NCBI GenBank assembly: GCA_963676395.1
Contig: OY781066.1
Location: 992,001-1,056,000, forward strand
DNA length: 64,000 bases
Direction of reading: 5' to 3'
Source: a bacterium
GTDB lineage: Bacteria; Fidelibacterota; Fidelibacteria; Fidelibacterales; Fidelibacteraceae
Shown here one piece after another: positions 9,995-22,281 of this stretch (within the stretch, counting starts at the first letter, position 1; every line of letters starts with the position of its first letter). The translations under genes were made by a program, and so were the position numbers. Below the pieces are notes generated by a model that did no database searches, was not told where the DNA came from, and saw only the letters and a program-made list of their open reading frames with translations.

Positions 9995-11011
9995 ATGGAT
10001 AAAAGAATCGACCTTATTTTAAAGAAAATTAAACTTACTGAAAAACAAAAACTGTGGTTACAAGTTTGCTATGACTTTTTTAGTATTGGTAAGAAAACAA
10101 CAGATGTAAACATTAGAGTTGCTTTGTATAATAAAATCGATAAAAAATTCAATCCAAAATTAATAGACCAGAAATTGCTTGATAACGGTAACAGAATTAC
10201 TCTCCTTGGAGTTTTGTATCTAGATAAAACAAATACAATTTTAAACGATGCAAATAAGCTGATTAATCTTATTAGAAAAATGATTTTAAAAAATTCGGAT
10301 TGTGAAGAATTGTTAACAGATGAATTAGCAAATATAACGGGGTTTTCTCAAATATATATAAACAGGATATTTGATCTTATTCGTGAATTTGGGTATTGGA
10401 ATGGTGCAAGTGGAAGCAATCATATTTATACTAAATATTCTATAAACAAGGAAAAGATTGCCGATTTATATTTATCTGATGACAAAATTGAAGATGTAAT
10501 TATTCAACACTACAAGTCGCTTGAAGAGAGAAGCTTATCTGATGATTATTTTGATTATTACGATCAAATTTATATTGTACATACACCTTGGAAAGAAATA
10601 AATAAATTACAGAATAAATTATTTGAATTGTTAAAAATCAGTAATGATTCGATTGATTTTCAAAATATTGGGAATACTGCACGAACAATTATGTTAAATA
10701 TTTCTGAAGAAGTATTTGATGCTCAAAAACATAAACCACAGAAAGCAGGTATAGATTTAAGTAAAGACAAATTCAAAAACAGATTACATACTTATATTGA
10801 TTCAGTACTAAGCGGAACTTCAAACAGAGAATTTAGACAGCTGGCTGAAGTTTCTATTGAGTATGTAGAAAAATCAATTGATCTTATGAATAAAACAACC
10901 CATAAAACTGATGCGGAGAAACACTTAGCTGAAGTTTGTGTAATTGGCACAATTAGTGCTGTAAATATTATTAAATTAATTGCTGAAATCGAAAATAAAG
11001 AAGAAGTATAG
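9995..11011 (+). CDS. Hypothetical defence-like protein; helical C-terminal domain resembling abortive-infection (AbiJ-associated) domains
   Basis: 338-aa AT-rich ORF with AAGGA RBS; C-terminal W..I......FQNIG..AR......VFD..KH...K.RL..YI...LSG.SN..FR pattern (recalled, not searched). Confidence 0.6.
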   Translation: MDKRIDLILKKIKLTEKQKLWLQVCYDFFSIGKKTTDVNIRVALYNKIDKKFNPKLIDQKLLDNGNRITLLGVLYLDKTNTILNDANKLINLIRKMILKNSDCEELLTDELANITGFSQIYINRIFDLIREFGYWNGASGSNHIYTKYSINKEKIADLYLSDDKIEDVIIQHYKSLEERSLSDDYFDYYDQIYIVHTPWKEINKLQNKLFELLKISNDSIDFQNIGNTARTIMLNISEEVFDAQKHKPQKAGIDLSKDKFKNRLHTYIDSVLSGTSNREFRQLAEVSIEYVEKSIDLMNKTTHKTDAEKHLAEVCVIGTISAVNIIKLIAEIENKEEV

Positions 11012-12077
11012 TGAAATTCCACCCAAATAAAAGAATAACTAAAATTCTTATTTCATCAACCAGTAGATTCGTAGGAGAATTTATTGATAATGATTTATTG
11101 ATAACACATGCTCGGGCAAGTAGTTACAATCAAATTGAAGGAACCTCTGGATTTCATGAAAATCCATTAAGCCGTAATTATTATGTTATTGTAATGGAAA
11201 CTCCTGAAACAAAAAAAGGAACAGTAGTTATACCAAATTATACGTATATGGGTGATGCCGTTACTATTCTTATGAGTATTCTTTTCGGTAAAAGATTTGA
11301 TAATCATGGACGGATAGAAAGCACAGGTAATTTTTATTTACCGGATATATCAAGTAAAACAACTCCATGTATTTCTTCTTTAGCCTATAATAACCATAAA
11401 CCAAGAAAAAATTTAAACATAGCATTAAAATTAAATGAATTTGAAAGAATTTTTCCCTTGTTAACAGATAATTTTAAAGATGAAATATTTTTAAAAATAT
11501 TGTTTTCTGCTGGCCGTTTTTACGTACACGCACTTCAAGAAGCTGAGCAACAGCCTGCGGTGAAATCCTTTCGAATTATTATCAATATTCTGATGATGAA
11601 ATTATTGACGATGATATGAAAAAAGATTTAGAAATTATTGAAACTCAAATTGATAATGGAGACATTATTGCAAAAAGAATAAGAAACCGTTTATTTCAAG
11701 TCAGAAAAAGACACAATCTCACAATACAAAAATTACTAACATCTGATTTTTTTGCTAATTCTGAATCAACTTCCGAGTTTTTTTCTTTAACAATTGAGGG
11801 ATTCACTAAAAGAATAAATGCAGCATATGATTTGCGAAGTCTCTATGTTCATACTGGAACAGAATTTGGCCCATGGTTAACTATCGGCATGCGTGATAAT
11901 TACGAGATTAATTTGGGACAGCCTGTAATCAAAGACAAAACACTAAAAAAACTCATACAGGATTGCCCAACTTTATTTGGACTCGAAAGAATAATGAGAT
12001 ATTGCTTATTGCGTTTTATTCATTTACATGGTTGTAAAATTGATGATTCACTTGAAGGAGATGGATTAATAAAATAA
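11011..12077 (+). pseudogene. Frameshifted HEPN-domain (ApeA-like) gene split into 11011-11619 and 11616-12077
   Basis: The second frame is open from 11547 (ACGEILSNYYQYSDDEIIDDDMKK) and holds the HEPN motif YDLRSLYVH (RxxxxH); the tail of the first ORF looks out-of-frame. Confidence 0.65.
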
Positions 12078-12150
12078 TTTTTAACTATTGTAATTTAATG
12101 TAATTTATTGATAACTTTATTTGAAGAACTGATAACTTAGAAAGAATGAA

Positions 12151-12435
12151 ATGACAAGTAAAGCATATATAATAAGTTATGACCTAAATTCACCTGGGCA
12201 GGATTATTCTAAATTATATGAAAAAATTAAAAGTCTGGGCAAGTGGTGGCATCATTTAGATTCCACATGGATTGTTAAATCTGATAAAAAAGCATCTGAG
12301 ATTAGAGATTATCTTGCTGATTATTTAGATAAAAATGATGAACTGATTGTTATAAAATTAGGAGATTCATGGGCAGGCATCGGGTTTGAAAAGAGAGCTT
12401 ACGATTGGCTTCATGATAACGCATATGAGAAATAA
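12151..12435 (+). CDS. Small Cas2/VapD-like ferredoxin-fold protein (stand-alone)
   Basis: YIISYDL N-terminal strand, STWIV, LDKNDELIVI; 94 aa. Confidence 0.7.
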   Translation: MTSKAYIISYDLNSPGQDYSKLYEKIKSLGKWWHHLDSTWIVKSDKKASEIRDYLADYLDKNDELIVIKLGDSWAGIGFEKRAYDWLHDNAYEK

Positions 12436-12438
12436 ATA

Positions 12439-12963
12439 ATGATATTAAACTTTGAAACCATAGCTTTAATCGTATCCATAACATCAATAATTTTGGCTAT
12501 TGTATCATTACTGTTTTCCGTAATATTTTATTGGTGGTCAAACAAATCAAATAGACAAACTTTTGAGTTATCAAAAGAAATTGAACAAAACACAAATAGG
12601 ATTCATGAATTATTTAATAGATTTTATTCTGATACCTTTGGTTTAATGAAAAGCAATTATTTGGCGATGCAATCTAGTATTTTCAGCCAGCAAGTAAGTT
12701 CGGGTGATTCTTCTTTTTCCCCAGAGGAACAGATTGAAAATATTATTATTTCTCTGTTGTTAAAGTCAAAAGTGTTAACACGTGAAAATATTTGCACTTA
12801 TTTTGAAAACACATATCCATCAAAGCAAATTTCACGACAATCAATTTTGGACGCAATAAATTCCCTTAAAGATAAAAACAAAATTTTCATTAATGATAAT
12901 TTGATTTCAATTTCTACTGAAAAAAAATCTTCTTCTAATGAAGATGAGAGCAATAGTTCATAA
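12439..12963 (+). CDS. Membrane-anchored hypothetical protein
   Basis: One N-terminal TM helix, coiled coil, possible C-terminal wHTH; 3 bp after the previous gene. Confidence 0.7.
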   Translation: MILNFETIALIVSITSIILAIVSLLFSVIFYWWSNKSNRQTFELSKEIEQNTNRIHELFNRFYSDTFGLMKSNYLAMQSSIFSQQVSSGDSSFSPEEQIENIIISLLLKSKVLTRENICTYFENTYPSKQISRQSILDAINSLKDKNKIFINDNLISISTEKKSSSNEDESNSS

Positions 12964-12974
12964 TACCTTCCAAA

Positions 12975-13452
12975 CTCTGTTCCCTTGCTTTTAGTAAACA
13001 TTCCACCTATATTCTTTTACCTGAATCTGTGTGGCGCAGTGAAATGGTTCCTATGAAACGTTTTCCGTTTTTCAAGATCATATTACTAAGCCTGGTCATT
13101 TCCCCGGTATTTTTAAGCGGGTATTCGCGGACGGCACGTTATGATGCGGTGATATCGCGGGAGGGAGAGCGCCGGTGTTTCAGGATGACGATTCTTTTTG
13201 TTATTTAGATTATCCCAGACCTCCATTCTCAACCCTTGATCCTCCCCCGCATCATTACCTATATTCATTTAGCCGAGAGGCTGTGTGGCACACTTCAAAG
13301 AACACTGGGCGCTGAGCGGTGCCTGCCCTGCGTAGCCTTGTGCGAAGCAGGGGGCTCTGTGAAAGGGTGCGTATGAAAACGACTCCATTTTATAGATCTA
13401 TTTGCTAAGCCTTGTCATTACCCTGCTTTTTTTGTGCGGGTGTTCGCGGGCG
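12975..13452 (+). repeat. Tandem degenerate duplication of a promoter, leader and 5' signal-peptide gene fragment (family 2)
   Basis: acctatattcttttacctgaatctgtgtggcgc...gtgaaatggttcctATGAAAcg... vs acctatattcatttagccgagaggctgtgtggcac...gtgaaagggtgcgtATGAAAac...; both reading frames are truncated. Confidence 0.7.
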
Positions 13453-13823
13453 AAAAATTGAAAATTGACCAGCCTCCTTCGCCAGCTGGCGGATTGTTAA
13501 TTATAAAGAAAATGCTGCTTATACTCTTCTTTGACCCCTCGAAATCAATAAAAGTCATTAATTCCGAATCATGATACTTGGAAAGGTCGCGCCTCAGCGG
13601 CGACGCGTGAAGAAAATCCGATGAGGTAGGCTTTGATCGTTATCGGGGTGCTTTGAGTTCTGTCACATACTAAATAATATTCATCTATCCTGAATCCATA
13701 ATACTGAGCACGTATAATAAATTGAATGAATATAAAAATTAACAATTAATCAATTTAAACTTTTGTCGTGCTTCTATTTTTCATTATCTTAATTACTACA
13801 AACAACTAGATATTGGATAATGT

Positions 13824-14771
13824 ATGAATTTTAAATCAACTACCTATGTATTACTTATTGCGATCGCGCTGACATTAAGTGCTTGTAATAGTGAAAATCC
13901 TTTTGACTTGGACAATGTTATCGCTGCGCTTCCGGCTGATACGTTGTTAAGTATTTCAACTTATGACGGCAGTGGCCAAGCAGTACATCCTGATATTATA
14001 TTATCAAATAACATTTTTTATCTGGCAATTACGCCCTATCCTTTCAGCAATGATTCATATGAAAATCCCTGTTTATATTCCAGTATTGATGGCCTTGAAT
14101 TTAATCCTTGTGTATCAAATCCTTTAGTCAAGACTCCGAAAAACGGCCATAATTCTGACCCTGATATATTTATTGACAACAGTGGAATTCTGAATATTTG
14201 TTATCGTGAAAGCATATCAAATGATGCAGACAATATAATCTTGCTAAAAAACAAGGGGAATTTACGCTTCAGAAGTTCGACCATTCTTCATTATCCAATA
14301 ATTGACCCCAAAAACAGAGTATTATCTCCTTCTATAACCTATTATCAGGATCAATATTATTTGTTTTACATGAGAAAATATGAAATAAAATACCTAACCA
14401 GTTCTAACTTGGATTCTTTGGATAAAACCAATGAGCATGATATTAATATTCATATGCCGGAAAACTACCGTTGTTGGCATGTGGATGTATTCAAAGCACA
14501 GGATACAGATGAATATTATATGCTTTTACACGGTTATTTGGGAGCTTATAATTATTCCCTTACCTTTGCTACCAGCACAGACCTTACTAACTGGACCGTT
14601 CAGGGCGAAATTATTAATAATGATAATTTGACGGATGAAGAAGCTTGGTATGTGTATCGCTCAACGGGGATTGTAAATAATAATATCCTCGTGATTTGGT
14701 ATTCGTATCGAACATACAACAACTATTGGAAATTGGGTTTGAAAAAGATCGATATCAATACTTTATCATAA
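13824..14771 (+). CDS. Lipoprotein with beta-propeller glycoside-hydrolase-like domain
   Basis: LSAC lipobox; YDGSGQAVHPD, TPYP..ENP, HNSDPD, SPS, WHVDV and YRST blade motifs. Confidence 0.7.
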   Translation: MNFKSTTYVLLIAIALTLSACNSENPFDLDNVIAALPADTLLSISTYDGSGQAVHPDIILSNNIFYLAITPYPFSNDSYENPCLYSSIDGLEFNPCVSNPLVKTPKNGHNSDPDIFIDNSGILNICYRESISNDADNIILLKNKGNLRFRSSTILHYPIIDPKNRVLSPSITYYQDQYYLFYMRKYEIKYLTSSNLDSLDKTNEHDINIHMPENYRCWHVDVFKAQDTDEYYMLLHGYLGAYNYSLTFATSTDLTNWTVQGEIINNDNLTDEEAWYVYRSTGIVNNNILVIWYSYRTYNNYWKLGLKKIDINTLS

Positions 14772-14962: not shown

Positions 14963-15394
14963 ATGAAATCTCAATATATCGCACCCTGCGGGATGAATTG
15001 TGCCTTGTGCATCGGCTTCATTCGTGAGAGAAACAAGTGCCATGGTTGCAACGAACACGATCAGTCAAAGCCCGAATACTGCCGTTCCTGCAAAGTCGTT
15101 GTCTGTGAAAAACGCAAGGCTTTGCCGCTCGGGCCGGGGGAAGTTGTTGCTCTGTGCTACGACTGCCCTGACTTACCGTGCGCGCGCATCAAGCAGCTGG
15201 ATAAACGCTACCGCGCCCGCTATTGGATGTCCATGATGGAGAATTTGGCGTATATTAAGGAGCATGGAATGGTTGCGTTTCTCGCGCGGGAAGAAAAACG
15301 ATGGAAATGTACTTCTTGTGGAGAAACATTGAGCGTTCATCGCACAGAGTGTCTGCAGTGTGGTCACCCGCGCGAAATTATGAATGATGGATGA
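14963..15394 (+). CDS. DUF3795-like Cys-rich protein
   Basis: IAPCGMNCALC, C..C, CYDCPDLPC, ENLAYIKEHG, WKCTSCG. Confidence 0.8.
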   Translation: MKSQYIAPCGMNCALCIGFIRERNKCHGCNEHDQSKPEYCRSCKVVVCEKRKALPLGPGEVVALCYDCPDLPCARIKQLDKRYRARYWMSMMENLAYIKEHGMVAFLAREEKRWKCTSCGETLSVHRTECLQCGHPREIMNDG

Positions 15395-15668
15395 TGGATT
15401 ATGAATAAAGTGACTGGACAGGTCACCGATCACTATATTCTGGATTCCGGCTTCTGATAAGACGGTTCCCTTCCACCCAAGAATATTCTCCTGGATCTGC
15501 CACGCCTCTTCCCTGTCCGCCGACTTGTGCGTCGAATCGGTCGACTGGCGGAGAAAACGGAAGCTTTAGCGAAGGCTGGAATTACAAGCATTTATATGAC
15601 GTAACATGTGACGTGCGACGCACTCGTTACGAGTTACGAGTCACGAAAAAAGTCATAAAATACAAAGA

Positions 15669-15795: not shown

Positions 15796-15811
15796 TGTGA
15801 TCCCCGTCACA
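15796..15811. promoter_or_regulatory. CRP/FNR-family-like box
   Basis: TGTGA-tccccg-TCACA. Confidence 0.55.
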
Positions 15812-15882
15812 CTTTTAACAAATAAGTCTTATTCATCCTCTTAATTGGCTGTTTGCTGTAAGCTGTGGGCTGATAGCTATAT

Positions 15883-15957
15883 TCTCCTGATTTCCAACAA
15901 ATTAAATTTCCATTTGTAAAGTTCAAATTTTATGCACATATTATTGTCTTGAATTAA
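15883..15957 (+). promoter_or_regulatory. Repeated promoter block family 1, copy C (upstream of the Lamassu-like operon)
   Basis: tctcctgatttccaacaaattaaatttccatTTGTAAagttcaaattttatgcaCATATTattgtcttgaattaa. Confidence 0.7.
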
Positions 15958-16034
15958 CTTTACATAAATTTATCTTAATTTGATATTATTCGTTAAATCT
16001 AAAAAAAGTTTAATTAACTTTTCGGAGGGTTATT

Positions 16035-16385
16035 ATGGATCCAATCACATTATCAAGTGCAGCTATTTCAATTATTACTCCTTTTATTGTAAAAACTGGG
16101 GAGGCAATAGTTCAAAAAACAGGAGAAAAACTTTGGAAATGGTTAAATATCAAGTTTAAAAAAGATGAAATAAAAACCAAAACAGGAAATATGAATACAG
16201 GTGATTTTGATATAATTAAAGGTGTAATACTTGATAAAATAAATAACGATAAAGAATTTAAAATAGCACTTGAGAAAGAAATAGAAAAAGCTAAAACATC
16301 AATATCAAAAATGACTGTTATTAATAAAGAAACTGTTGAAAAACAAATCAATATTAACAAGAATTTTGGTGATATTACTATGTGA
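16035..16385 (+). CDS. Small Bell/HeLo-like helical protein with C-terminal amyloid-like motif
   Basis: GGAGG RBS; MDPITLSSAAISIITPFIVKTGEAIVQKTGEKLWKWL N-terminus; ends TVINKETVEKQININKNFGDITM. Confidence 0.7.
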   Translation: MDPITLSSAAISIITPFIVKTGEAIVQKTGEKLWKWLNIKFKKDEIKTKTGNMNTGDFDIIKGVILDKINNDKEFKIALEKEIEKAKTSISKMTVINKETVEKQININKNFGDITM

Positions 16386-16408
16386 TACTATTGAAAATAC
16401 TTATTAAG

Positions 16409-16936
16409 ATGAAGCAATTAAACATTAACAAAAATTTTGGGGAAATCTATCTAGAAAAAACAACCAGATTTTCTAGCCGATTCAAGCGATTAAACGAAGA
16501 AATTGAAAAGGATCAAAAAATTGATGAAGTTATCGATAAACTTCAAACTTATAATAAATCAGCTGATTTAAGAAGTATGCCAGAAAAACTAGAAGATGGT
16601 GGTTTTTCGAAAGAAGAAATTTATCAAGCAAAATTAAGAAAACAACAATATTGGATGAGTTTTGAAAAACATAAATTCTACAAAACAGCTCAAATAATTG
16701 ATTCAGAAATATTTGCATTGTTGAAATTTAATTTTGACACTTATATTTATCCTTTAATTTTGCAAAACGAACCAAAAAATAAAATCTTACTTGAATTAAA
16801 TTCAAAAGTTATATTGCCAATATTAACATTATTGAATAAAGAAGGCGAGGAAGATACTTATCTAAACTATAGTGTTGATGATTTACTTGGCATGTTATAT
16901 TTTATTACTGGCAAGTGTCATATTAATTGGAAATAA
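16409..16936 (+). CDS. ABC-three-component C-terminal-domain protein (LmuA position) with an N-terminal motif and no enzymatic effector
   Basis: EKLEDGG, A..RKQQY, GMLYFITGKCHINW pattern; first gene of the 3-gene ABC-3C unit; ATG at 16409 preferred to GTG at 16382. Confidence 0.75.
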   Translation: MKQLNINKNFGEIYLEKTTRFSSRFKRLNEEIEKDQKIDEVIDKLQTYNKSADLRSMPEKLEDGGFSKEEIYQAKLRKQQYWMSFEKHKFYKTAQIIDSEIFALLKFNFDTYIYPLILQNEPKNKILLELNSKVILPILTLLNKEGEEDTYLNYSVDDLLGMLYFITGKCHINWK

Positions 16937-16937
16937 A

Positions 16938-17459
16938 ATGATTGTATATAATCAAGCTTATGATGTCTATTACACAATTTTTAGGATGATTCATTTACTT
17001 TATAGTATCAGAAAAAGTAATAGTATAGATTTGGATCGATTAAGAATTTACGATTTTTATTTATTATTTCCCAGTGCGAGTCATAACATGACTATAAAAC
17101 GTAATGAAGGTGATATTCGCCAGTTGAGAAAAGATTTGATTGACAAAAATAAAAATCCCTTCGAAATTCTTTATAACCAGAAAAAAATATTCGATAATAT
17201 AAAGAATTTTCAAATAACTTCATTAAGATGTCTATCTTCTTTTGGGCTAATAAATAATGATTTTGAAAAATCAAAGACGATTATTATTGAAGATAATTCT
17301 CTTTTGGAAGAAGCTATAGATAATATTGGGAAGCTGACTTCAAGGCAAAAAAACATGTTAATCTTTATTCAAGAAAGTTTCTCAAAATTCCCTATGACGG
17401 GCGTAGATGGAATTAAAAATCGTACCAAATTAATGGAAAGCAAGTATGATGCAGAATAA
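16938..17459 (+). CDS. ABC-three-component middle component (MC5-like; LmuC position)
   Basis: MIVYNQAYDVYYTIFR, RLRIYDFYLLFP, G.DGIKNRTKLMESKYD; lies between the CTD gene and the ATPase. Confidence 0.8.
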   Translation: MIVYNQAYDVYYTIFRMIHLLYSIRKSNSIDLDRLRIYDFYLLFPSASHNMTIKRNEGDIRQLRKDLIDKNKNPFEILYNQKKIFDNIKNFQITSLRCLSSFGLINNDFEKSKTIIIEDNSLLEEAIDNIGKLTSRQKNMLIFIQESFSKFPMTGVDGIKNRTKLMESKYDAE

Positions 17460-19368
17460 CTTATTTGTAAATCGATTATTAATTTATACCGAAGAGGGTC
17501 GAATAGCTTACGATGAAGAATTCCATAAAGGTATAAACATTATTAGAGGACATAATAGTAGCGGAAAATCCACAATTACTCATTTTATATTTTTTGCATT
17601 AGGGGGTGCTTTCAATAATTTTGTTCCAGAAGCCAAAAAATGTTCTACTGTATATATTGAAATTGAAGTCAACAATGCGGTCATTTCCCTTAAGAGAAAT
17701 ATTGAGAAAGATATTTATGATAAAATTAATTCGAAATCATCTTTATACTTTTATTGGGGTTCCTTAGAAAAAGGATTAAGAAGTAGTAAGGATTGGTATA
17801 AATTTGGTTATAACTCAACCAAGAATACAAAGAGTTTTTCAAATGTGCTTTTTGAAAACATGGATTTACCTATAATATATGCTGATAATAATATAACTTT
17901 TTATCAAATTTTACGACTCTTGTATATTGATCAAGAATCTCCAACAAGTTCTTTATTTTATTATGATCAATTTGATAGTCAAATTACCAGAGAAACAGTA
18001 TCAGAAATATTATTAGGATTATATAGCAATGATCTTTACACAAAAAAAATGAGATTGAGAACAGCGAGAAAGGAACTTGAAAGTATAAATGATGAAATTA
18101 GAGTTACAAAACGATTTTTCAAGGACCCGAACTCACTTGACTCTGGGTTCTTAGAAAGTAAAATCAAGAGCCTAGAAGAACAAATATCCTCTATTGATAA
18201 TCAAATAACAAATATTCGTAATGGAAATAAAACCGTTGAATTTAAAAAAACCTCTAAGATGGAATTTGAAAATATTGAAGGCGAAATAATAAATACAAGA
18301 AAACATCTCACTGAAACAAAAAATAAAATTGCAACACTAAATAGTGAAATTGAGGATACAAGCTACTTTATCTATACTTTAAAAAGTAAAATTGAAGCGT
18401 TAAGAAATTCAATCAAAACAAGAAATTTTTTAGATAATATTGATATTGAATTTTGTCCAAAATGTTTATCAAAAATAGATTCTAAAGCAAATATTGGGCA
18501 ATGTAATTTATGTAAACAAGAAATTAGTATAGATAATACTGGAGAAGCTGAAGCAAGAAAGATTGAACAAGAAATTAGTTTTCAAATACTTGAATCAACT
18601 CAAATTCTTGAAAAGATTCAAAGAGAACGTATAGATTATAAATCTGTGTATAAAGGAATTCAAGCTAAGTTGTTTGTCCTTCAACAGAAACAAAACTCTA
18701 TTATCAAAGATGTAAAATCATATCAACAAGAAGTACTTGACAGTCTTTTTACTAAAAAAGGGTTTATTGAAGGAGAATCTTTACAGTATCGAACCATGCT
18801 TGAAAAAGCTACATTATATGACGAATTGCTTGACATTAAATACTCCTTAAAAAAAGAAATTGAGTTACTGGATAAACAAATTTTACAAATTGAATTTACT
18901 CAAAACAGGCTCAAAGTTAGAATAAATGATACGATCAAAAAAGAAGCTCTTTATTTACTAAATAATGATTTAAATCGGCAAGATGAGTTTCGCAATGCAA
19001 GTGAATTCTATATTAATTATTCAAATAATATCGCTTTTTTATCAAGTAAGTATGCAAAATACTCAGCAAGCTCTAATTTTTACCTGAAAATCACTGCGCG
19101 TTTTGCAATATTTTTAGCATCCCTATCTATTCCTGAAATGAGATTTCCTAGATTTATATTTGCTGATAATATGGAAGATAAAGGAATTGAAATAGGAAGA
19201 GCTCAAAATCTTCAAAAAGTTTTAATAAAACGTTTAAATGAGTTTGATTCCAAAAATTATCAATTGATATACACTACCTCGTATATTACAGATGAGCTTA
19301 ATGAGAGTCCTTATGTCGTAGGTGAATTTTATACTGAAACTAATCGGAGTCTTAAAAATATTTCATAA
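17446..19368 (+). CDS. lmuB: SMC/Rad50-like ABC ATPase of the ABC-3C (Lamassu-like) system
   Basis: Walker A GHNSSGKST, YIDQ Q-loop, long coiled coils with CPKC...CNLC zinc motif, YSASS signature, FIFADNMEDKG Walker B. Confidence 0.85.
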   Translation: MMQNNLFVNRLLIYTEEGRIAYDEEFHKGINIIRGHNSSGKSTITHFIFFALGGAFNNFVPEAKKCSTVYIEIEVNNAVISLKRNIEKDIYDKINSKSSLYFYWGSLEKGLRSSKDWYKFGYNSTKNTKSFSNVLFENMDLPIIYADNNITFYQILRLLYIDQESPTSSLFYYDQFDSQITRETVSEILLGLYSNDLYTKKMRLRTARKELESINDEIRVTKRFFKDPNSLDSGFLESKIKSLEEQISSIDNQITNIRNGNKTVEFKKTSKMEFENIEGEIINTRKHLTETKNKIATLNSEIEDTSYFIYTLKSKIEALRNSIKTRNFLDNIDIEFCPKCLSKIDSKANIGQCNLCKQEISIDNTGEAEARKIEQEISFQILESTQILEKIQRERIDYKSVYKGIQAKLFVLQQKQNSIIKDVKSYQQEVLDSLFTKKGFIEGESLQYRTMLEKATLYDELLDIKYSLKKEIELLDKQILQIEFTQNRLKVRINDTIKKEALYLLNNDLNRQDEFRNASEFYINYSNNIAFLSSKYAKYSASSNFYLKITARFAIFLASLSIPEMRFPRFIFADNMEDKGIEIGRAQNLQKVLIKRLNEFDSKNYQLIYTTSYITDELNESPYVVGEFYTETNRSLKNIS

Positions 19369-19615
19369 AATGATTTATTTTATTCTAAATTTGGCACATA
19401 CTGGTTGAGAACTAATTAATGGTGACAATCAAAATATTTTCCCTATATAACATTATACTCGAAAAAAAACATCACTTAGGTCAAAACTCCTAAATATTGT
19501 ATGTTATTTTTTCTAAAATACATAGAGACGATTCTATCAAGTGCCCGTAAAGCAGTAGTATATATAAACTTGTAACTGGTAACTAGAAATTAAATACCAT
19601 TCAAAGGTTATATAT

Positions 19616-20048: not shown

Positions 20049-21053
20049 ATGAAAAAATCACTATGCTTATTGATCATACTCAGCTTATTTCTCTCTGCTT
20101 GCCTTTTTACACCGCCAGCAAGTGACGAAACCTTTGGCATTTATATGTTACAAAATAAAAACCTGGATATTTATGATGATCTTGAGGATGAAGTGCTCAG
20201 CAAACCTTTGGACTCCGCGGCGGTACTCACAGCGGCGGACATTGATTTTTATGATTGGTCCTCCCATTGCATCTACCTAAAAAACAACAAAGACCAACTC
20301 AAGGAACGCCTGTTGGATGACCGTGGCTTTTTAGTCAAGAACCCAGGGGCGGCCTTTGTTGTCAGTACCAATGGTGCTTCACAATACTATGGCTGTTTTC
20401 ACAGTCTGATCATGAACCTTGCGCCAACAACACCAACTATCGATGAAATGTCACTTACTTATTATCCAGAGGATGTTCTGTCTATTGGCAGATCCTGGAT
20501 CAGCGACGATCTTGATACCCGAAATAACGACGATGTAAAACAAGCCTTGATCAATGCCGGATTGTTCCATGCGGGGATCTCGGTGGAGATTGATACGGCT
20601 TTTGGACTGAATTTCTATCCGTTTGCCGGTGATTCCTCACAAATGGAGTATCGTTTTATTATTAGCAACCATGACGAGGATGCGCTCTATGTGCTGGATC
20701 CTGACAAAATTGGCACGGAACTTTTCTTTTACTTCAATGTGGCACCATCGATCTATAATTTGGATACCGACGCTTATCTGCATCCCAATCACAGTTACGA
20801 CCCGAGCATGACGCCCGATACCAGCAATTTTGATAATTTGAATTGGTACACCCTGCTGTCCTCCGGAGAATCGATAACCCGAACTGTCCGCACAGGCAAC
20901 TATACCAATGTCACTGCCGGTCGCTACGAACTTGCGCTAGATTATAGCACCCCGATTAACACCCTGAGACAAGCACGCCGAAATAAACCCCTTGGCAGAA
21001 TATGGATCGGGAATGTAAAATCTGACAAATACATATTGAGTGTTGAGTTGTAA
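20049..21053 (+). CDS. Hypothetical lipoprotein, paralogue of 25229-26254
   Basis: LSAC lipobox; DIDFYDWSSHCIYL and LYVLDPDKIGTELF motifs shared with the paralogue. Confidence 0.8.
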   Translation: MKKSLCLLIILSLFLSACLFTPPASDETFGIYMLQNKNLDIYDDLEDEVLSKPLDSAAVLTAADIDFYDWSSHCIYLKNNKDQLKERLLDDRGFLVKNPGAAFVVSTNGASQYYGCFHSLIMNLAPTTPTIDEMSLTYYPEDVLSIGRSWISDDLDTRNNDDVKQALINAGLFHAGISVEIDTAFGLNFYPFAGDSSQMEYRFIISNHDEDALYVLDPDKIGTELFFYFNVAPSIYNLDTDAYLHPNHSYDPSMTPDTSNFDNLNWYTLLSSGESITRTVRTGNYTNVTAGRYELALDYSTPINTLRQARRNKPLGRIWIGNVKSDKYILSVEL

Positions 21054-21094
21054 GAGGCGAGTAACTGAAAAAATACAAGAATCTGAAAGCCACG

Positions 21095-21247
21095 GTGAAA
21101 TAACTTATACCCATATGCATTTTCATGATATTCATATCATGTTTTATGCCCCGCTCAGAAACCATGCTCTCTGATTGCCCTCTCACACCTGTGGCTTATC
21201 AATATTACGATTTTTCGTACCGGGGTACAGATCTTTACAAGAATTGA
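21095..21247 (+). pseudogene. Truncated 5' fragment paralogous to lipoprotein 5874-6329
   Basis: GTG AAA TAA then LIPICIFMIFISCFMPRSETMLSDCPLTPVAYQYYDFSY, versus SCHMPIPEPTLSELPLNPVAYEHYDFSY. Confidence 0.75.
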
Positions 21248-21423
21248 ACGTTAGTCTCTTGCATCCCTATTGATTTAATATCTTAATAATTTTGTCATTC
21301 GGCTAATGGGACCCGGTTCGTTATCAACTATTCATTGTAAATCTTTGCTATCACAACGTTTACTGTTTAAATTATTCTGCCGGTTTGGTAAACACAACTT
21401 AGTCACCTGACGGAGCCTGACAC

Positions 21424-22281
21424 ATGGATTTTCTTACATACGCGATCATTATATTTTTGGTCTTGGAAACCGCTAACGTTCTTATGTTATATTTTACACC
21501 GGGAACTCAGCGGGGTAATGGTCTTGGCGTATTTAAAGCCTATGAAGAATCAAAATCTGACCCCGACGTCCATGCTCTGGTAAAATATTTGATCAACTGG
21601 GTTGCCAATACAAAGTTAATCTTTATTGCCATCATGATCGTCATTATCGTGGTTGGAAATGATCACACAAAACTCTATGCCGTTGGTGCTCTTTGTATTT
21701 CTATTTCAGCCTACTATTTTTCTTTGTACCCCAATATCAAACGACTTGATGAAGCGGGCAAGATAACACCCCGTGGTTATTCAAGAACACTGTCTTACAT
21801 GATCACAGCCTTTCTTGCTATCTTTTGTCTTGCCATTATTTGGGTAGCTTTACCCAAGCTAAATAATAAACCGCTTACTATCAATGGTAGTTGGCGACTT
21901 ATCCATAGCGTTGAAATAACTGAGCAAGATACAAGTGTAACCATCTATGAAGAAGGTCGCGAATTGTATAAAATCATCAATACGGCACATTTTTCATTTC
22001 TTGAACATGATCCCAGTCTCCGACTGAACGGCATCCCCTACTTTATTGTTGGTGGTGGCCGATATACGTGCAAAGGTCAAACCTATACCGAATGTATCGA
22101 TTATTGCAGTGACCCCACGCTTCAAAATACCACGACCGTTTATGATATTGAAATAGTCGAAGATACCCTCAAATTGAAAAATATCGAAATTATGGAGAAA
22201 AACGGGGTTGACCGCTTGACGATCAAAACCTACTTAAAGATCCCGGAAGAAGCTTGTAAAGACATAAACTTAGCCAAATGA
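21424..22281 (+). CDS. Membrane protein with C-terminal lipocalin-like domain
   Basis: About 4 TM helices followed by INGSWRL...GGGRYT..G.TYTE. Confidence 0.65.
   Translation: MDFLTYAIIIFLVLETANVLMLYFTPGTQRGNGLGVFKAYEESKSDPDVHALVKYLINWVANTKLIFIAIMIVIIVVGNDHTKLYAVGALCISISAYYFSLYPNIKRLDEAGKITPRGYSRTLSYMITAFLAIFCLAIIWVALPKLNNKPLTINGSWRLIHSVEITEQDTSVTIYEEGRELYKIINTAHFSFLEHDPSLRLNGIPYFIVGGGRYTCKGQTYTECIDYCSDPTLQNTTTVYDIEIVEDTLKLKNIEIMEKNGVDRLTIKTYLKIPEEACKDINLAK

Follow-up and report, generated by a model that had tools for sequence, protein, structure and literature searches.

How does a Lamassu operon act when the protein in the LmuA position carries no effector? This question is raised by a four-gene operon, P1 to P4, in the DNA analysed here, a stretch of 64,000 nucleotides (hereafter the window) comprising positions 992,001 to 1,056,000 of contig OY781066.1 (assembly GCA_963676395.1) from a bacterium of the Fidelibacteraceae. 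Lamassu systems, of the ABC-three-component (ABC-3C) type, are given as present in ~10-15% of prokaryotic genomes (PMC10586767; PMC12663957), and the accessible parts of the literature assign the effector role to N-terminal domains of LmuA (PMC10586767). In the current study the LmuA-position protein, P2, was found to lack an effector domain and to begin with a short motif that recurs at the C-terminus of P1, the small protein encoded immediately upstream. The pairing was found again, with matched motifs, in related loci. The operon is probably a Lamassu (ABC-3C) variant in which the effector is supplied in trans by way of an amyloid-signalling-type motif, analogous to Bab/Agp, an abortive-infection system of E. 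coli ECOR25 described with the bacterial amyloid signalling sequence (BASS) motif BASS11 (Ibarlosa et al., bioRxiv 10.1101/2024.11.07.622273). The genes are arranged as follows.

16035..16385, + strand: P1, 116 residues, intact open reading frame (ORF); candidate small Bell/Babybell-like helical protein
16382..16384, + strand: GTG codon at which P2 could alternatively start, sharing bases with the stop codon of P1 (GTGA); it would prepend MILLKILIK to the motif
16409..16936, + strand: P2, 175 residues from the ATG; putative LmuA-position adaptor consisting of motif, helical linker and CTD9
16577..16930, + strand: CTD9 domain of P2 (residues 57-174), Pfam match
16938..17459, + strand: P3, 173 residues; middle component MC5/LmuC by Pfam and PADLOC
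17446..19368, + strand: P4, 640 residues; short LmuB-type ABC ATPase resembling Rad50 and proteins of the SMC (structural maintenance of chromosomes) type

All four ORFs are intact, lie on the same strand (+) and are tightly packed within 16035-19368, with a gap of 23 nt between P1 and P2, a gap of 1 nt between P2 and P3, and an overlap of 14 nt between P3 and P4. A preliminary description of this DNA had read the genes as a 116-residue protein, a CTD-only protein, a middle component and an SMC-like ATPase, and the ORFs and family matches bear this out. P2 matched Pfam CTD9 (C-terminal domain 9 of ABC-3C systems) at 3.3e-26 over residues 57-174, above the cut-off of 27.9 bits, and P3 matched MC5 at 3.4e-36 over residues 3-171 as well as PADLOC LmuC at 3.7e-5. 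P4 was recognized by PADLOC as LmuB (4.4e-33) and by AAA_23 (2.6e-11) and SMC_N (1.1e-4); it carries a Walker A motif (GHNSSGKS, residues 35-42), two CxxC motifs (CPKC, 337-340, and CNLC, 353-356) and a Walker-B-like FIFADN (570-575). No family was found for P1 in Pfam, PADLOC or NCBIfam. ABC-3C, CTD9 and MC5 were reportedly defined by Krishnan et al. in 2020. A scan of the operon DNA for promoters and terminators was uninformative in the AT-rich sequence.

The same description had held that P2 leaves no room for the nuclease, protease or hydrolase domain usual at its position, and this was confirmed. P2 has 175 residues, the 56 residues ahead of CTD9 gave no family above cut-off in Pfam, and the LmuA models of PADLOC did not match. 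In the related loci introduced below, the complete CTD9 proteins are all 184-207 residues long, which leaves no space for an enzyme, and no CTD9 protein in the set carries an enzymatic domain. No longer, fused forms of P2 were found, in a search that is itself weak evidence. A sub-threshold Pfam match to HeLo (E 0.042) falls on P2, not on P1.

The shared motif was found exactly at the coordinates that had first been given for it:

16341..16376, + strand: P1 residues 103-114, KQININKNFGDI, C-terminal shared motif (second repeat), inside a tail predicted to be disordered
16412..16447, + strand: P2 residues 2-13, KQLNINKNFGEI, N-terminal shared motif
16311..16340, + strand: P1 residues 93-102, MTVINKETVE, a weak first pseudo-repeat that aligns with ..QQNINNNGNIE.. 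of the homologues, the consensus G being lost

The two copies are identical at 10 of 12 residues, with conservative changes at the other two. In a six-frame translation of the whole 2,335,625-bp genome, the patterns N[ILVM]N[KRQ]NFG and [ILV]N[ILV]N.N[FYW]G occurred at these two sites and nowhere else. Their DNA agrees at 28 of 36 nt, and among the 12 codons five are shared, five differ synonymously and two non-synonymously. Because so many of the codons differ synonymously, the match appears to be maintained at the protein level and not to be a fresh duplication of DNA. Both motifs are rich in N, Q and G with alternating hydrophobic residues, and the N-terminus of P2 holds just the second of the two pseudo-repeats present in homologues. 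None of the four ORFs is broken and, within its class (class I, below), no pair matches better than the second repeat; the sequences therefore argue for a functional copy in the window.

If the match between P1 and P2 matters for function, it should be seen in homologous operons, and these were collected from two sources. Seven loci came from species genomes, and the best 80 of 157 relatives in metagenome contigs brought the number to 87. A CTD9 profile built from nine proteins matched all 88 sources (the 87 loci and the window). Three loci with a truncated or divided CTD9 ORF (L016, L065 and L086) and three with less than 200 nt upstream (L010, L014 and L048) were excluded, leaving 82. In 80 of these, the top local match (score of at least 30) to the N-terminus of the CTD9 protein, outside the operon, was the adjacent upstream gene on the same strand. 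Both exceptions have a partner gene: that of L007 is 777 bp upstream, past an insertion rich in short tandem repeats, and that of L081 has a frameshift or deletion running across the motif. A lack of the small gene or of the paired motif in homologous operons, which would have spoken against the proposal, was thus not borne out. Judged from these sequences, the pairing of the motifs of P1-type and CTD9 proteins seems close to certain.

Several of these loci are of interest in themselves. The 777-bp insertion of L007 (4541-5316) contains two small ORFs besides its repeats and may be a small mobile insertion. Decayed copies are seen in L081 (1-1203), where the partner gene is damaged, and in L065 (3423-4040), where the CTD9 gene has fallen into two ORFs. 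In a word-indexed database P2 had only two close relatives (52% identity), the N-termini of which carry a longer version of the motif. The alignments of CTD9 and of P1 were also scanned against viral contigs, and no relatives were found.

The 81 loci with a partner (the 80 and L007) fall into 37 clusters at 90% CTD9 identity, and in 32 of these the intergenic gap is -3 to 11 nt. A programmed fusion of P1 and P2 by readthrough or frameshifting was considered and rejected: the junctions range from -3 to 43 nt (777 nt in L007), and the motif of class III is N-terminal on the partner. Four classes of motif, unrelated to one another, were distinguished:

Class I, ..Q.I.N.G.IEKQINIQ.N.G.I..: 25 clusters including the window; motif at the C-terminus of the partner
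Class II, NINAGGDVAGRDI: 5 clusters; partners are peptides of 53-57 residues (one of 91) with one hydrophobic segment and the motif C-terminal
Class III, GNPGTGN.F....NYNPNA: 6 clusters, mostly human-gut contigs; partners of ~172 residues with the motif at their own N-terminus
Class IV, SGG.NQ.LPNAT: 1 cluster (L007); partner of 152 residues with the motif near the N-terminus

The class was the same on both genes within every locus. Summed over the 37 clusters, the scores of the CTD9 motifs with their own partners amounted to 2393, compared with 1393 +/- 107 after shuffling, a sum reached by none of 10,000 permutations, although the related loci are not independent and the permutation numbers overstate the count of separate events. 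The mean pair score was 64.7 for the own partner, 52.1 for partners of the same class from another locus and 22.3 for partners of another class. Co-variation was also detected inside class I, where the own-pair sum of 1339 (1232 +/- 32 when shuffled) was reached by 6 of 10,000 permutations of the 25 clusters, and the motif of the window P1 ranked first of the 25 class I partner motifs for the P2 motif. Four wholesale changes of class, each matched in both genes, can nevertheless hardly be accounted for unless there is selection to keep the ends matching. The effector-less CTD9 protein that shares a terminal motif with the upstream gene, as first proposed from the window, is thus a recurrent arrangement in which the two motifs vary together.

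The partners themselves are varied. By eye, 20 of the class I partners are Bell-like proteins of 117-121 residues starting with MEPITL or MDPITL (one is cut by a contig end), and the other five have 90-96 residues and carry one more hydrophobic segment at the N-terminus, ahead of ..MEPIIL... The latter (L006, 5684-5965, and L015, L017, L024 and L034) resemble the Bell N-terminal helix with a second hydrophobic helix placed ahead of it. In the class II loci (L050, L069, L077, L083 and L084), NINAGGDVAGRDI also opens the CTD9 proteins, and the short partners are minimal candidate membrane effectors. The class III partners (L008, 2572-3087; L046, 1323-1841; L042, L054, L085 and L088) have a C-terminal domain of ~120 residues that belongs to no Pfam family or named Atlas cluster, possibly a new effector or regulator domain. 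One CTD9 scaffold combined with varied small hydrophobic partners is the behaviour expected of interchangeable effectors.

What kind of protein, then, is P1? Published Bell domains are described as helical bundles of ~120-140 residues, in which the second or third residue is acidic and the N-terminal helix hydrophobic, and Bell gene pairs as collinear and often overlapping (bioRxiv 10.1101/2020.01.06.895854). The Babybell domain of Bab is described as shorter, with a conserved N-terminal 'MEPIS' motif and four helices that cup helix 1 (bioRxiv 10.1101/2024.11.07.622273). The corresponding helix of P1 is:

16041..16091, + strand: P1 residues 3-19, MDPITLSSAAISIITPFIV, predicted hydrophobic N-terminal helix following M-D at residues 1-2 (Kyte-Doolittle analysis and AlphaFold2 model)

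P1 is a short protein (116 residues) with an acidic residue at position 2 and this hydrophobic helix, in which the 15-residue Kyte-Doolittle mean peaks at 1.82 from residue 4. The AlphaFold2 model, computed from 62 sequences, is a compact bundle of helix 1 and four more helices (residues 3-19, 24-40, 43-50, 55-71 and 73-95), with a mean predicted local distance difference test score (pLDDT) of 74.5 and a predicted template modelling score of 0.63. Helix 3-19 is modelled at a pLDDT of ~90, and the tail from residue 96 (96-116), with the motif, is predicted to be disordered in the monomer (pLDDT <50). Together with a C-terminal motif that is repeated at the N-terminus of the adjoining collinear gene product, these features of sequence and model support a match to the published description of Bell and Babybell proteins.

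A word-index search with P1 returned only P1 itself. A profile of five homologues, run with HMMER against 1.84 billion representative proteins, gave 408 proteins at E<=1e-3, of which 69 reach E<=1e-10. The class I tail is common to the top ~40 matches, and the remainder keep the N-terminal domain and have other tails rich in G, N, S or Q. The consensus of the N-terminal domain is M-D/E-x-x-x-L-A...L-x-P-Y-L-x-K-x-G-E..A...G..LW..IK..F. Eleven relatives of the domain are longer proteins, in which Pfam detects a fused EAD11 in three and CHAT in one; because of these fusions the P1 domain appears to belong among the effector modules of conflict systems. HetE-N was matched below threshold in 5 of the 62 P1 relatives (best E 0.0028), and is found in 11% of the members of one of the nearest Atlas clusters. 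A sequence search of the PDB with the P1 profile gave just FtsY and Med4 at E of at least 0.05, which is noise, and Foldseek with two P1 models gave nothing at E<=0.001. The proposal that the upstream protein is Bell/HeLo-like is supported by the length, the acidic residue 2, helix 1, the predicted bundle and the tail; homology to HeLo, Bell or Bab was not detected by sequence or fold.

The reading that we favour, of an effector recruited in trans by an amyloid-type motif, draws on what is described for the two better known kinds of system. In solved Lamassu systems the C-terminal oligomerization domain of LmuA is described as being sequestered by two LmuB protomers and LmuC; DNA sensing frees LmuA, which forms a tetramer and so activates its N-terminal nuclease (10.1101/2025.03.14.643221; PMC12663957). 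In NWD2/HET-S and Bab/Agp, such clustering is held, according to the accessible text, to nucleate amyloid, to convert the effector motif and to free a membrane-targeting helix (bioRxiv 10.1101/2024.11.07.622273). By analogy, P4 (LmuB-like), P3 (LmuC/MC5) and P2 (the CTD9 adaptor, without an enzymatic head) would form the sensor complex, and in resting P1 the hydrophobic N-terminal helix would be sheathed by the four other helices. When LmuB/LmuC sense foreign DNA, P2 would be released and its CTD would drive oligomerization, as for LmuA in the solved systems. Brought together in this way, the N-terminal motifs of P2 may take up a cross-beta or other higher-order fold, which would recruit and convert the matching motif of P1; the bundle would open, the N-terminal helix would enter the membrane, and the infected cell would die by abortive infection. 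Because release and oligomerization of P2 would gather several N-terminal motifs, P1 may be read as the in-trans effector and P2 as the nucleating adaptor, and the tetramerization of LmuA on activation would give the proximity that an amyloid nucleus needs. For the contact between the motifs to be self-templating and amyloid, we see a chance slightly better than even.

Several observations weigh against this reading. The motif in the window is short, with 12-13 residues and one repeat in P2, and judged from its sequence it includes three charged residues; the BASS11 peptides assayed are described as longer, with 23-24 residues (bioRxiv 10.1101/2024.11.07.622273). The start of P2 is ambiguous between the ATG at 16409 and the in-frame GTG at 16382. 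The GTG would give a protein of 184 residues that overlaps P1 by 4 nt, and would put nine hydrophobic residues before the motif; the same -3 junction geometry is found in 4 of the 37 homologous clusters. The ranks of the own partner in class I span 1 to 19 of 25, many of them mid-field, and fine co-variation was not significant within class II (1272 of 10,000 permutations) or class III (4570 of 10,000). By their sequences the class III partners are not obviously hydrophobic and do not look membrane-active, so a membrane-killing role would not be universal. Amyloid formation, binding, membrane activity and defence are, moreover, steps that we infer throughout by analogy. A complex prediction for P2 residues 1-60 with P1 residues 70-116 scored 0.02 against a mark of 0.32; controls are absent, and the result counts neither for nor against binding.

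The main rival reading is a split LmuA, in which P1 and P2, as the effector head and the CTD of an ordinary LmuA, would be held together stoichiometrically by a beta-zipper of the motifs and P1 would be activated by clustering on the P2 tetramer, with no templating. The pairing and co-variation data are accounted for equally well in this way, the motif of the window has just 12-13 residues on P2 and includes charged ones, and for nuclease LmuA effectors tetramerization alone is described as sufficient (10.1101/2025.03.14.643221; PMC12663957). The character of the motifs points the other way. They are N/Q/G-rich with alternating hydrophobic residues, and in most homologues they form two pseudo-repeats, like amyloid signalling sequences; Bell-type partners have, in the accessible descriptions, so far been reported with amyloid motifs (bioRxiv 10.1101/2020.01.06.895854; 10.1101/2024.11.07.622273); and whole motif classes are exchanged between loci as cassettes. 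Plain docking is still compatible with each of these points, and we regard a split LmuA as possible though doubtful.

Another explanation would make P1 a membrane anchor or regulator that, by way of the shared motif, tethers or restrains the CTD9-LmuC-LmuB complex, for instance at the site of DNA entry, with killing carried out elsewhere or not at all and the DNA being sequestered. Such a role would suit the many partners that are small hydrophobic proteins, an operon without an enzymatic effector, and the class III partners that are not obviously membrane-active. An acidic residue followed by a hydrophobic helix that is buried, in the model, in a soluble bundle looks however like a signature of conditional membrane attack and not of a constitutive anchor. 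Relatives of the P1 domain occupy effector positions in fusion with EAD11, and it is the LmuA effector through which Lamassu is said to act (PMC10586767). An anchoring role of P1 therefore seems quite unlikely. That the match is a functionless accident of low-complexity, AT-rich coding or of recent local duplication, to which a GC content of 24-28% with its enrichment of N, K and I codons might lend itself, is refuted by the two solitary occurrences in the six-frame genome, the synonymous differences in 5 of 12 codons and the recurrence in 80 of 82 loci and four classes.

The favoured reading, of an effector recruited in trans through an amyloid-type motif, has its closest likeness in Bab/Agp. 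There, according to the accessible text, experiments showed that a Bell-type protein and a non-NLR sensor (NLR, NOD-like receptor) with a common terminal motif give abortive-infection defence via amyloid conversion (10.1101/2024.11.07.622273). Like Bab, P1 is a helical protein of about 110 residues with a hydrophobic N-terminal helix, which starts with 'MEPIS' in Bab, MDPIT in P1 and MEPIT in the homologues. In both systems a C-terminal motif of ~20 residues recurs at the N-terminus of a non-NLR product of the adjoining collinear gene, in a defence context. In contrast to Bab/Agp, the window motif sits on a 175-residue adaptor of a three-component SMC-like DNA sensor and has another sequence. 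No sequence or structure of Bab for comparison with P1 turned up in the PDB searches.

The pairs of Bell proteins and NLRs with motifs BASS1-10, and fungal HET-S/NWD2, are similar in that, as far as the accessible descriptions go, a C-terminal motif of the effector stands beside an N-terminal motif of the receptor, and the collinear genes adjoin each other or overlap. The effector of a BASS pair may, in these descriptions, hold two motif repeats and the receptor one, as do P1, with its two pseudo-repeats, and P2. The difference is that P2 is not an NLR of the NB-ARC or NACHT type but the CTD9 adaptor of an ABC-3C system; an NLR partner is described as not obligatory, on the evidence of Bab/Agp (bioRxiv 10.1101/2024.11.07.622273). 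The hosts of CTD9 loci also differ from the filamentous Actinobacteria and Cyanobacteria that are emphasized in the accessible parts of Dyrka et al. (10.1101/2020.01.06.895854).

Within the Lamassu/ABC-3C/DdmABC group, the operon has the usual gene order, with a short LmuB of 640 residues bearing Walker A and two CxxC motifs, an LmuC/MC5 protein and a C-terminal docking domain. It differs from that group in that P2 has no N-terminal enzymatic domain, a fourth gene lies upstream, and the proposed output is a separate membrane-acting protein. The concept of effector-associated domains (EADs), in which effectors are coupled to NTPase conflict systems by a common small module, was reportedly set out by Kaur et al. 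in 2020. The present systems share with it the same small module on effector and sensor, encoded side by side, and EAD11 is itself found fused to relatives of the P1 domain; unlike EADs, the present systems use an unstructured motif of 12-25 residues and not a globular adaptor domain.

The preliminary description did not know this combination as a characterized system, and no paper joining the two fields was found in the literature searched. No publication linking Lamassu or ABC-3C with amyloid signalling was found, supplements and the founding ABC-3C paper lying outside the scope of the search. The words 'Lamassu', 'ABC' and 'SMC' do not occur in the text of Ibarlosa et al. (bioRxiv 10.1101/2024.11.07.622273), nor 'ABC' or 'SMC' in a motif-detection paper of 2025. 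As amyloid signalling has already been shown in phage defence for another sensor, the proposal falls short of a categorically new step. The CTD9 operon is well supported as an architecture, and for its mechanism we put forward a proposal built on analogy.

With regard to origin, the operon lies in a stretch of distinct composition:

15800..19600, no strand assigned: low-GC island with the operon, ~24-28% GC compared with a genome mean of 38.1%

A CTD9 protein was found in none of 60 other related genomes (1 of 61, the one being this genome), and a profile search for the P1 family gave none in 400 other genomes of the window's phylum (1 of 401, again this genome). The operon is a recent horizontal acquisition, as judged from a GC content of 24-28% where the genome has 38%, and from the absence of relatives in the other related genomes and genomes of the phylum that were searched. 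A search for the limits of a mobile element found no direct repeats at the flanks, no tRNA genes and no Rfam families. Short GC-rich segments (46-51% GC) flank AT-rich stretches at 13000-13600 and 15000-15600 of the window, and the region 13000-13800 contains no ORF of more than 60 residues, no Rfam family and no tRNA. Pfam assigns no family to most of the ORFs nearby (9995-14771 and 20049-22281).

Named hosts of the related loci are Bacteroidota metagenome-assembled genomes (MAGs), a Holdemania MAG and a gut Prevotella MAG. A search around the genome of locus L003 gave P1-profile matches in 3 of 401 genomes, G401 among them. One new match, L095, is again a complete operon of Bell-like, CTD9, MC5 and ATPase genes; the other, L096, is an unrelated weak match at a contig end. 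In L096 (2228-3149) adjoining proteins of 153 and 125 residues have a similar tail, ..QIN.G..STYNE.K, and are possibly a shared-motif pair unrelated to CTD9. Defence-type genes were seen near two related operons: in L002 (836-5407 and 9117-10502) a 1523-residue sacsin/HATPase-NOV_C protein and an ApeA_NTD1-HEPN_Apea protein, and in L006 (4566-5546) a CBS protein with a sub-threshold match to Swt1-like HEPN (E 0.023). The low-GC island and the defence-type neighbours of related loci give indirect support for a role in defence.

An effector-less Lamassu clade, clade O, is on record and stands unexplained, and the accessible parts of that paper mention no upstream partner (Haudiquet et al., PMC12663957). 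It is about an even chance that an entire Lamassu branch (the CTD9 group, perhaps together with clade O) has swapped the fused effector for interchangeable prion-like motif cassettes, such that the tetramerizing CTD of LmuA would be an amyloid nucleator that converts separate membrane killers (Bell-like proteins, small proteins that have one hydrophobic segment or an additional N-terminal one, and the uncharacterized 172-residue domain). The CTD9 finding offers an explanation for the effector-less clade, in which the effector would be a separate gene product recruited by a short matched peptide. Since PADLOC calls no LmuA here, defence annotators would probably miss or truncate such operons.

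Activation of Lamassu by tetramerization of LmuA has been solved only recently, and amyloid signalling in bacteria has so far been shown once, for Bab/Agp, and predicted for NLRs. If the proposal is true, amyloid signalling would reach a third, unrelated class of sensor, the multi-subunit SMC-like DNA sensor, and SMC-type DNA sensing would be linked to a form of signalling whose coupling has so far been reported only for NLR and TGP sensors. A single conserved scaffold that occurs with four classes of motif and with four or more types of partner would also provide natural material for rewiring.

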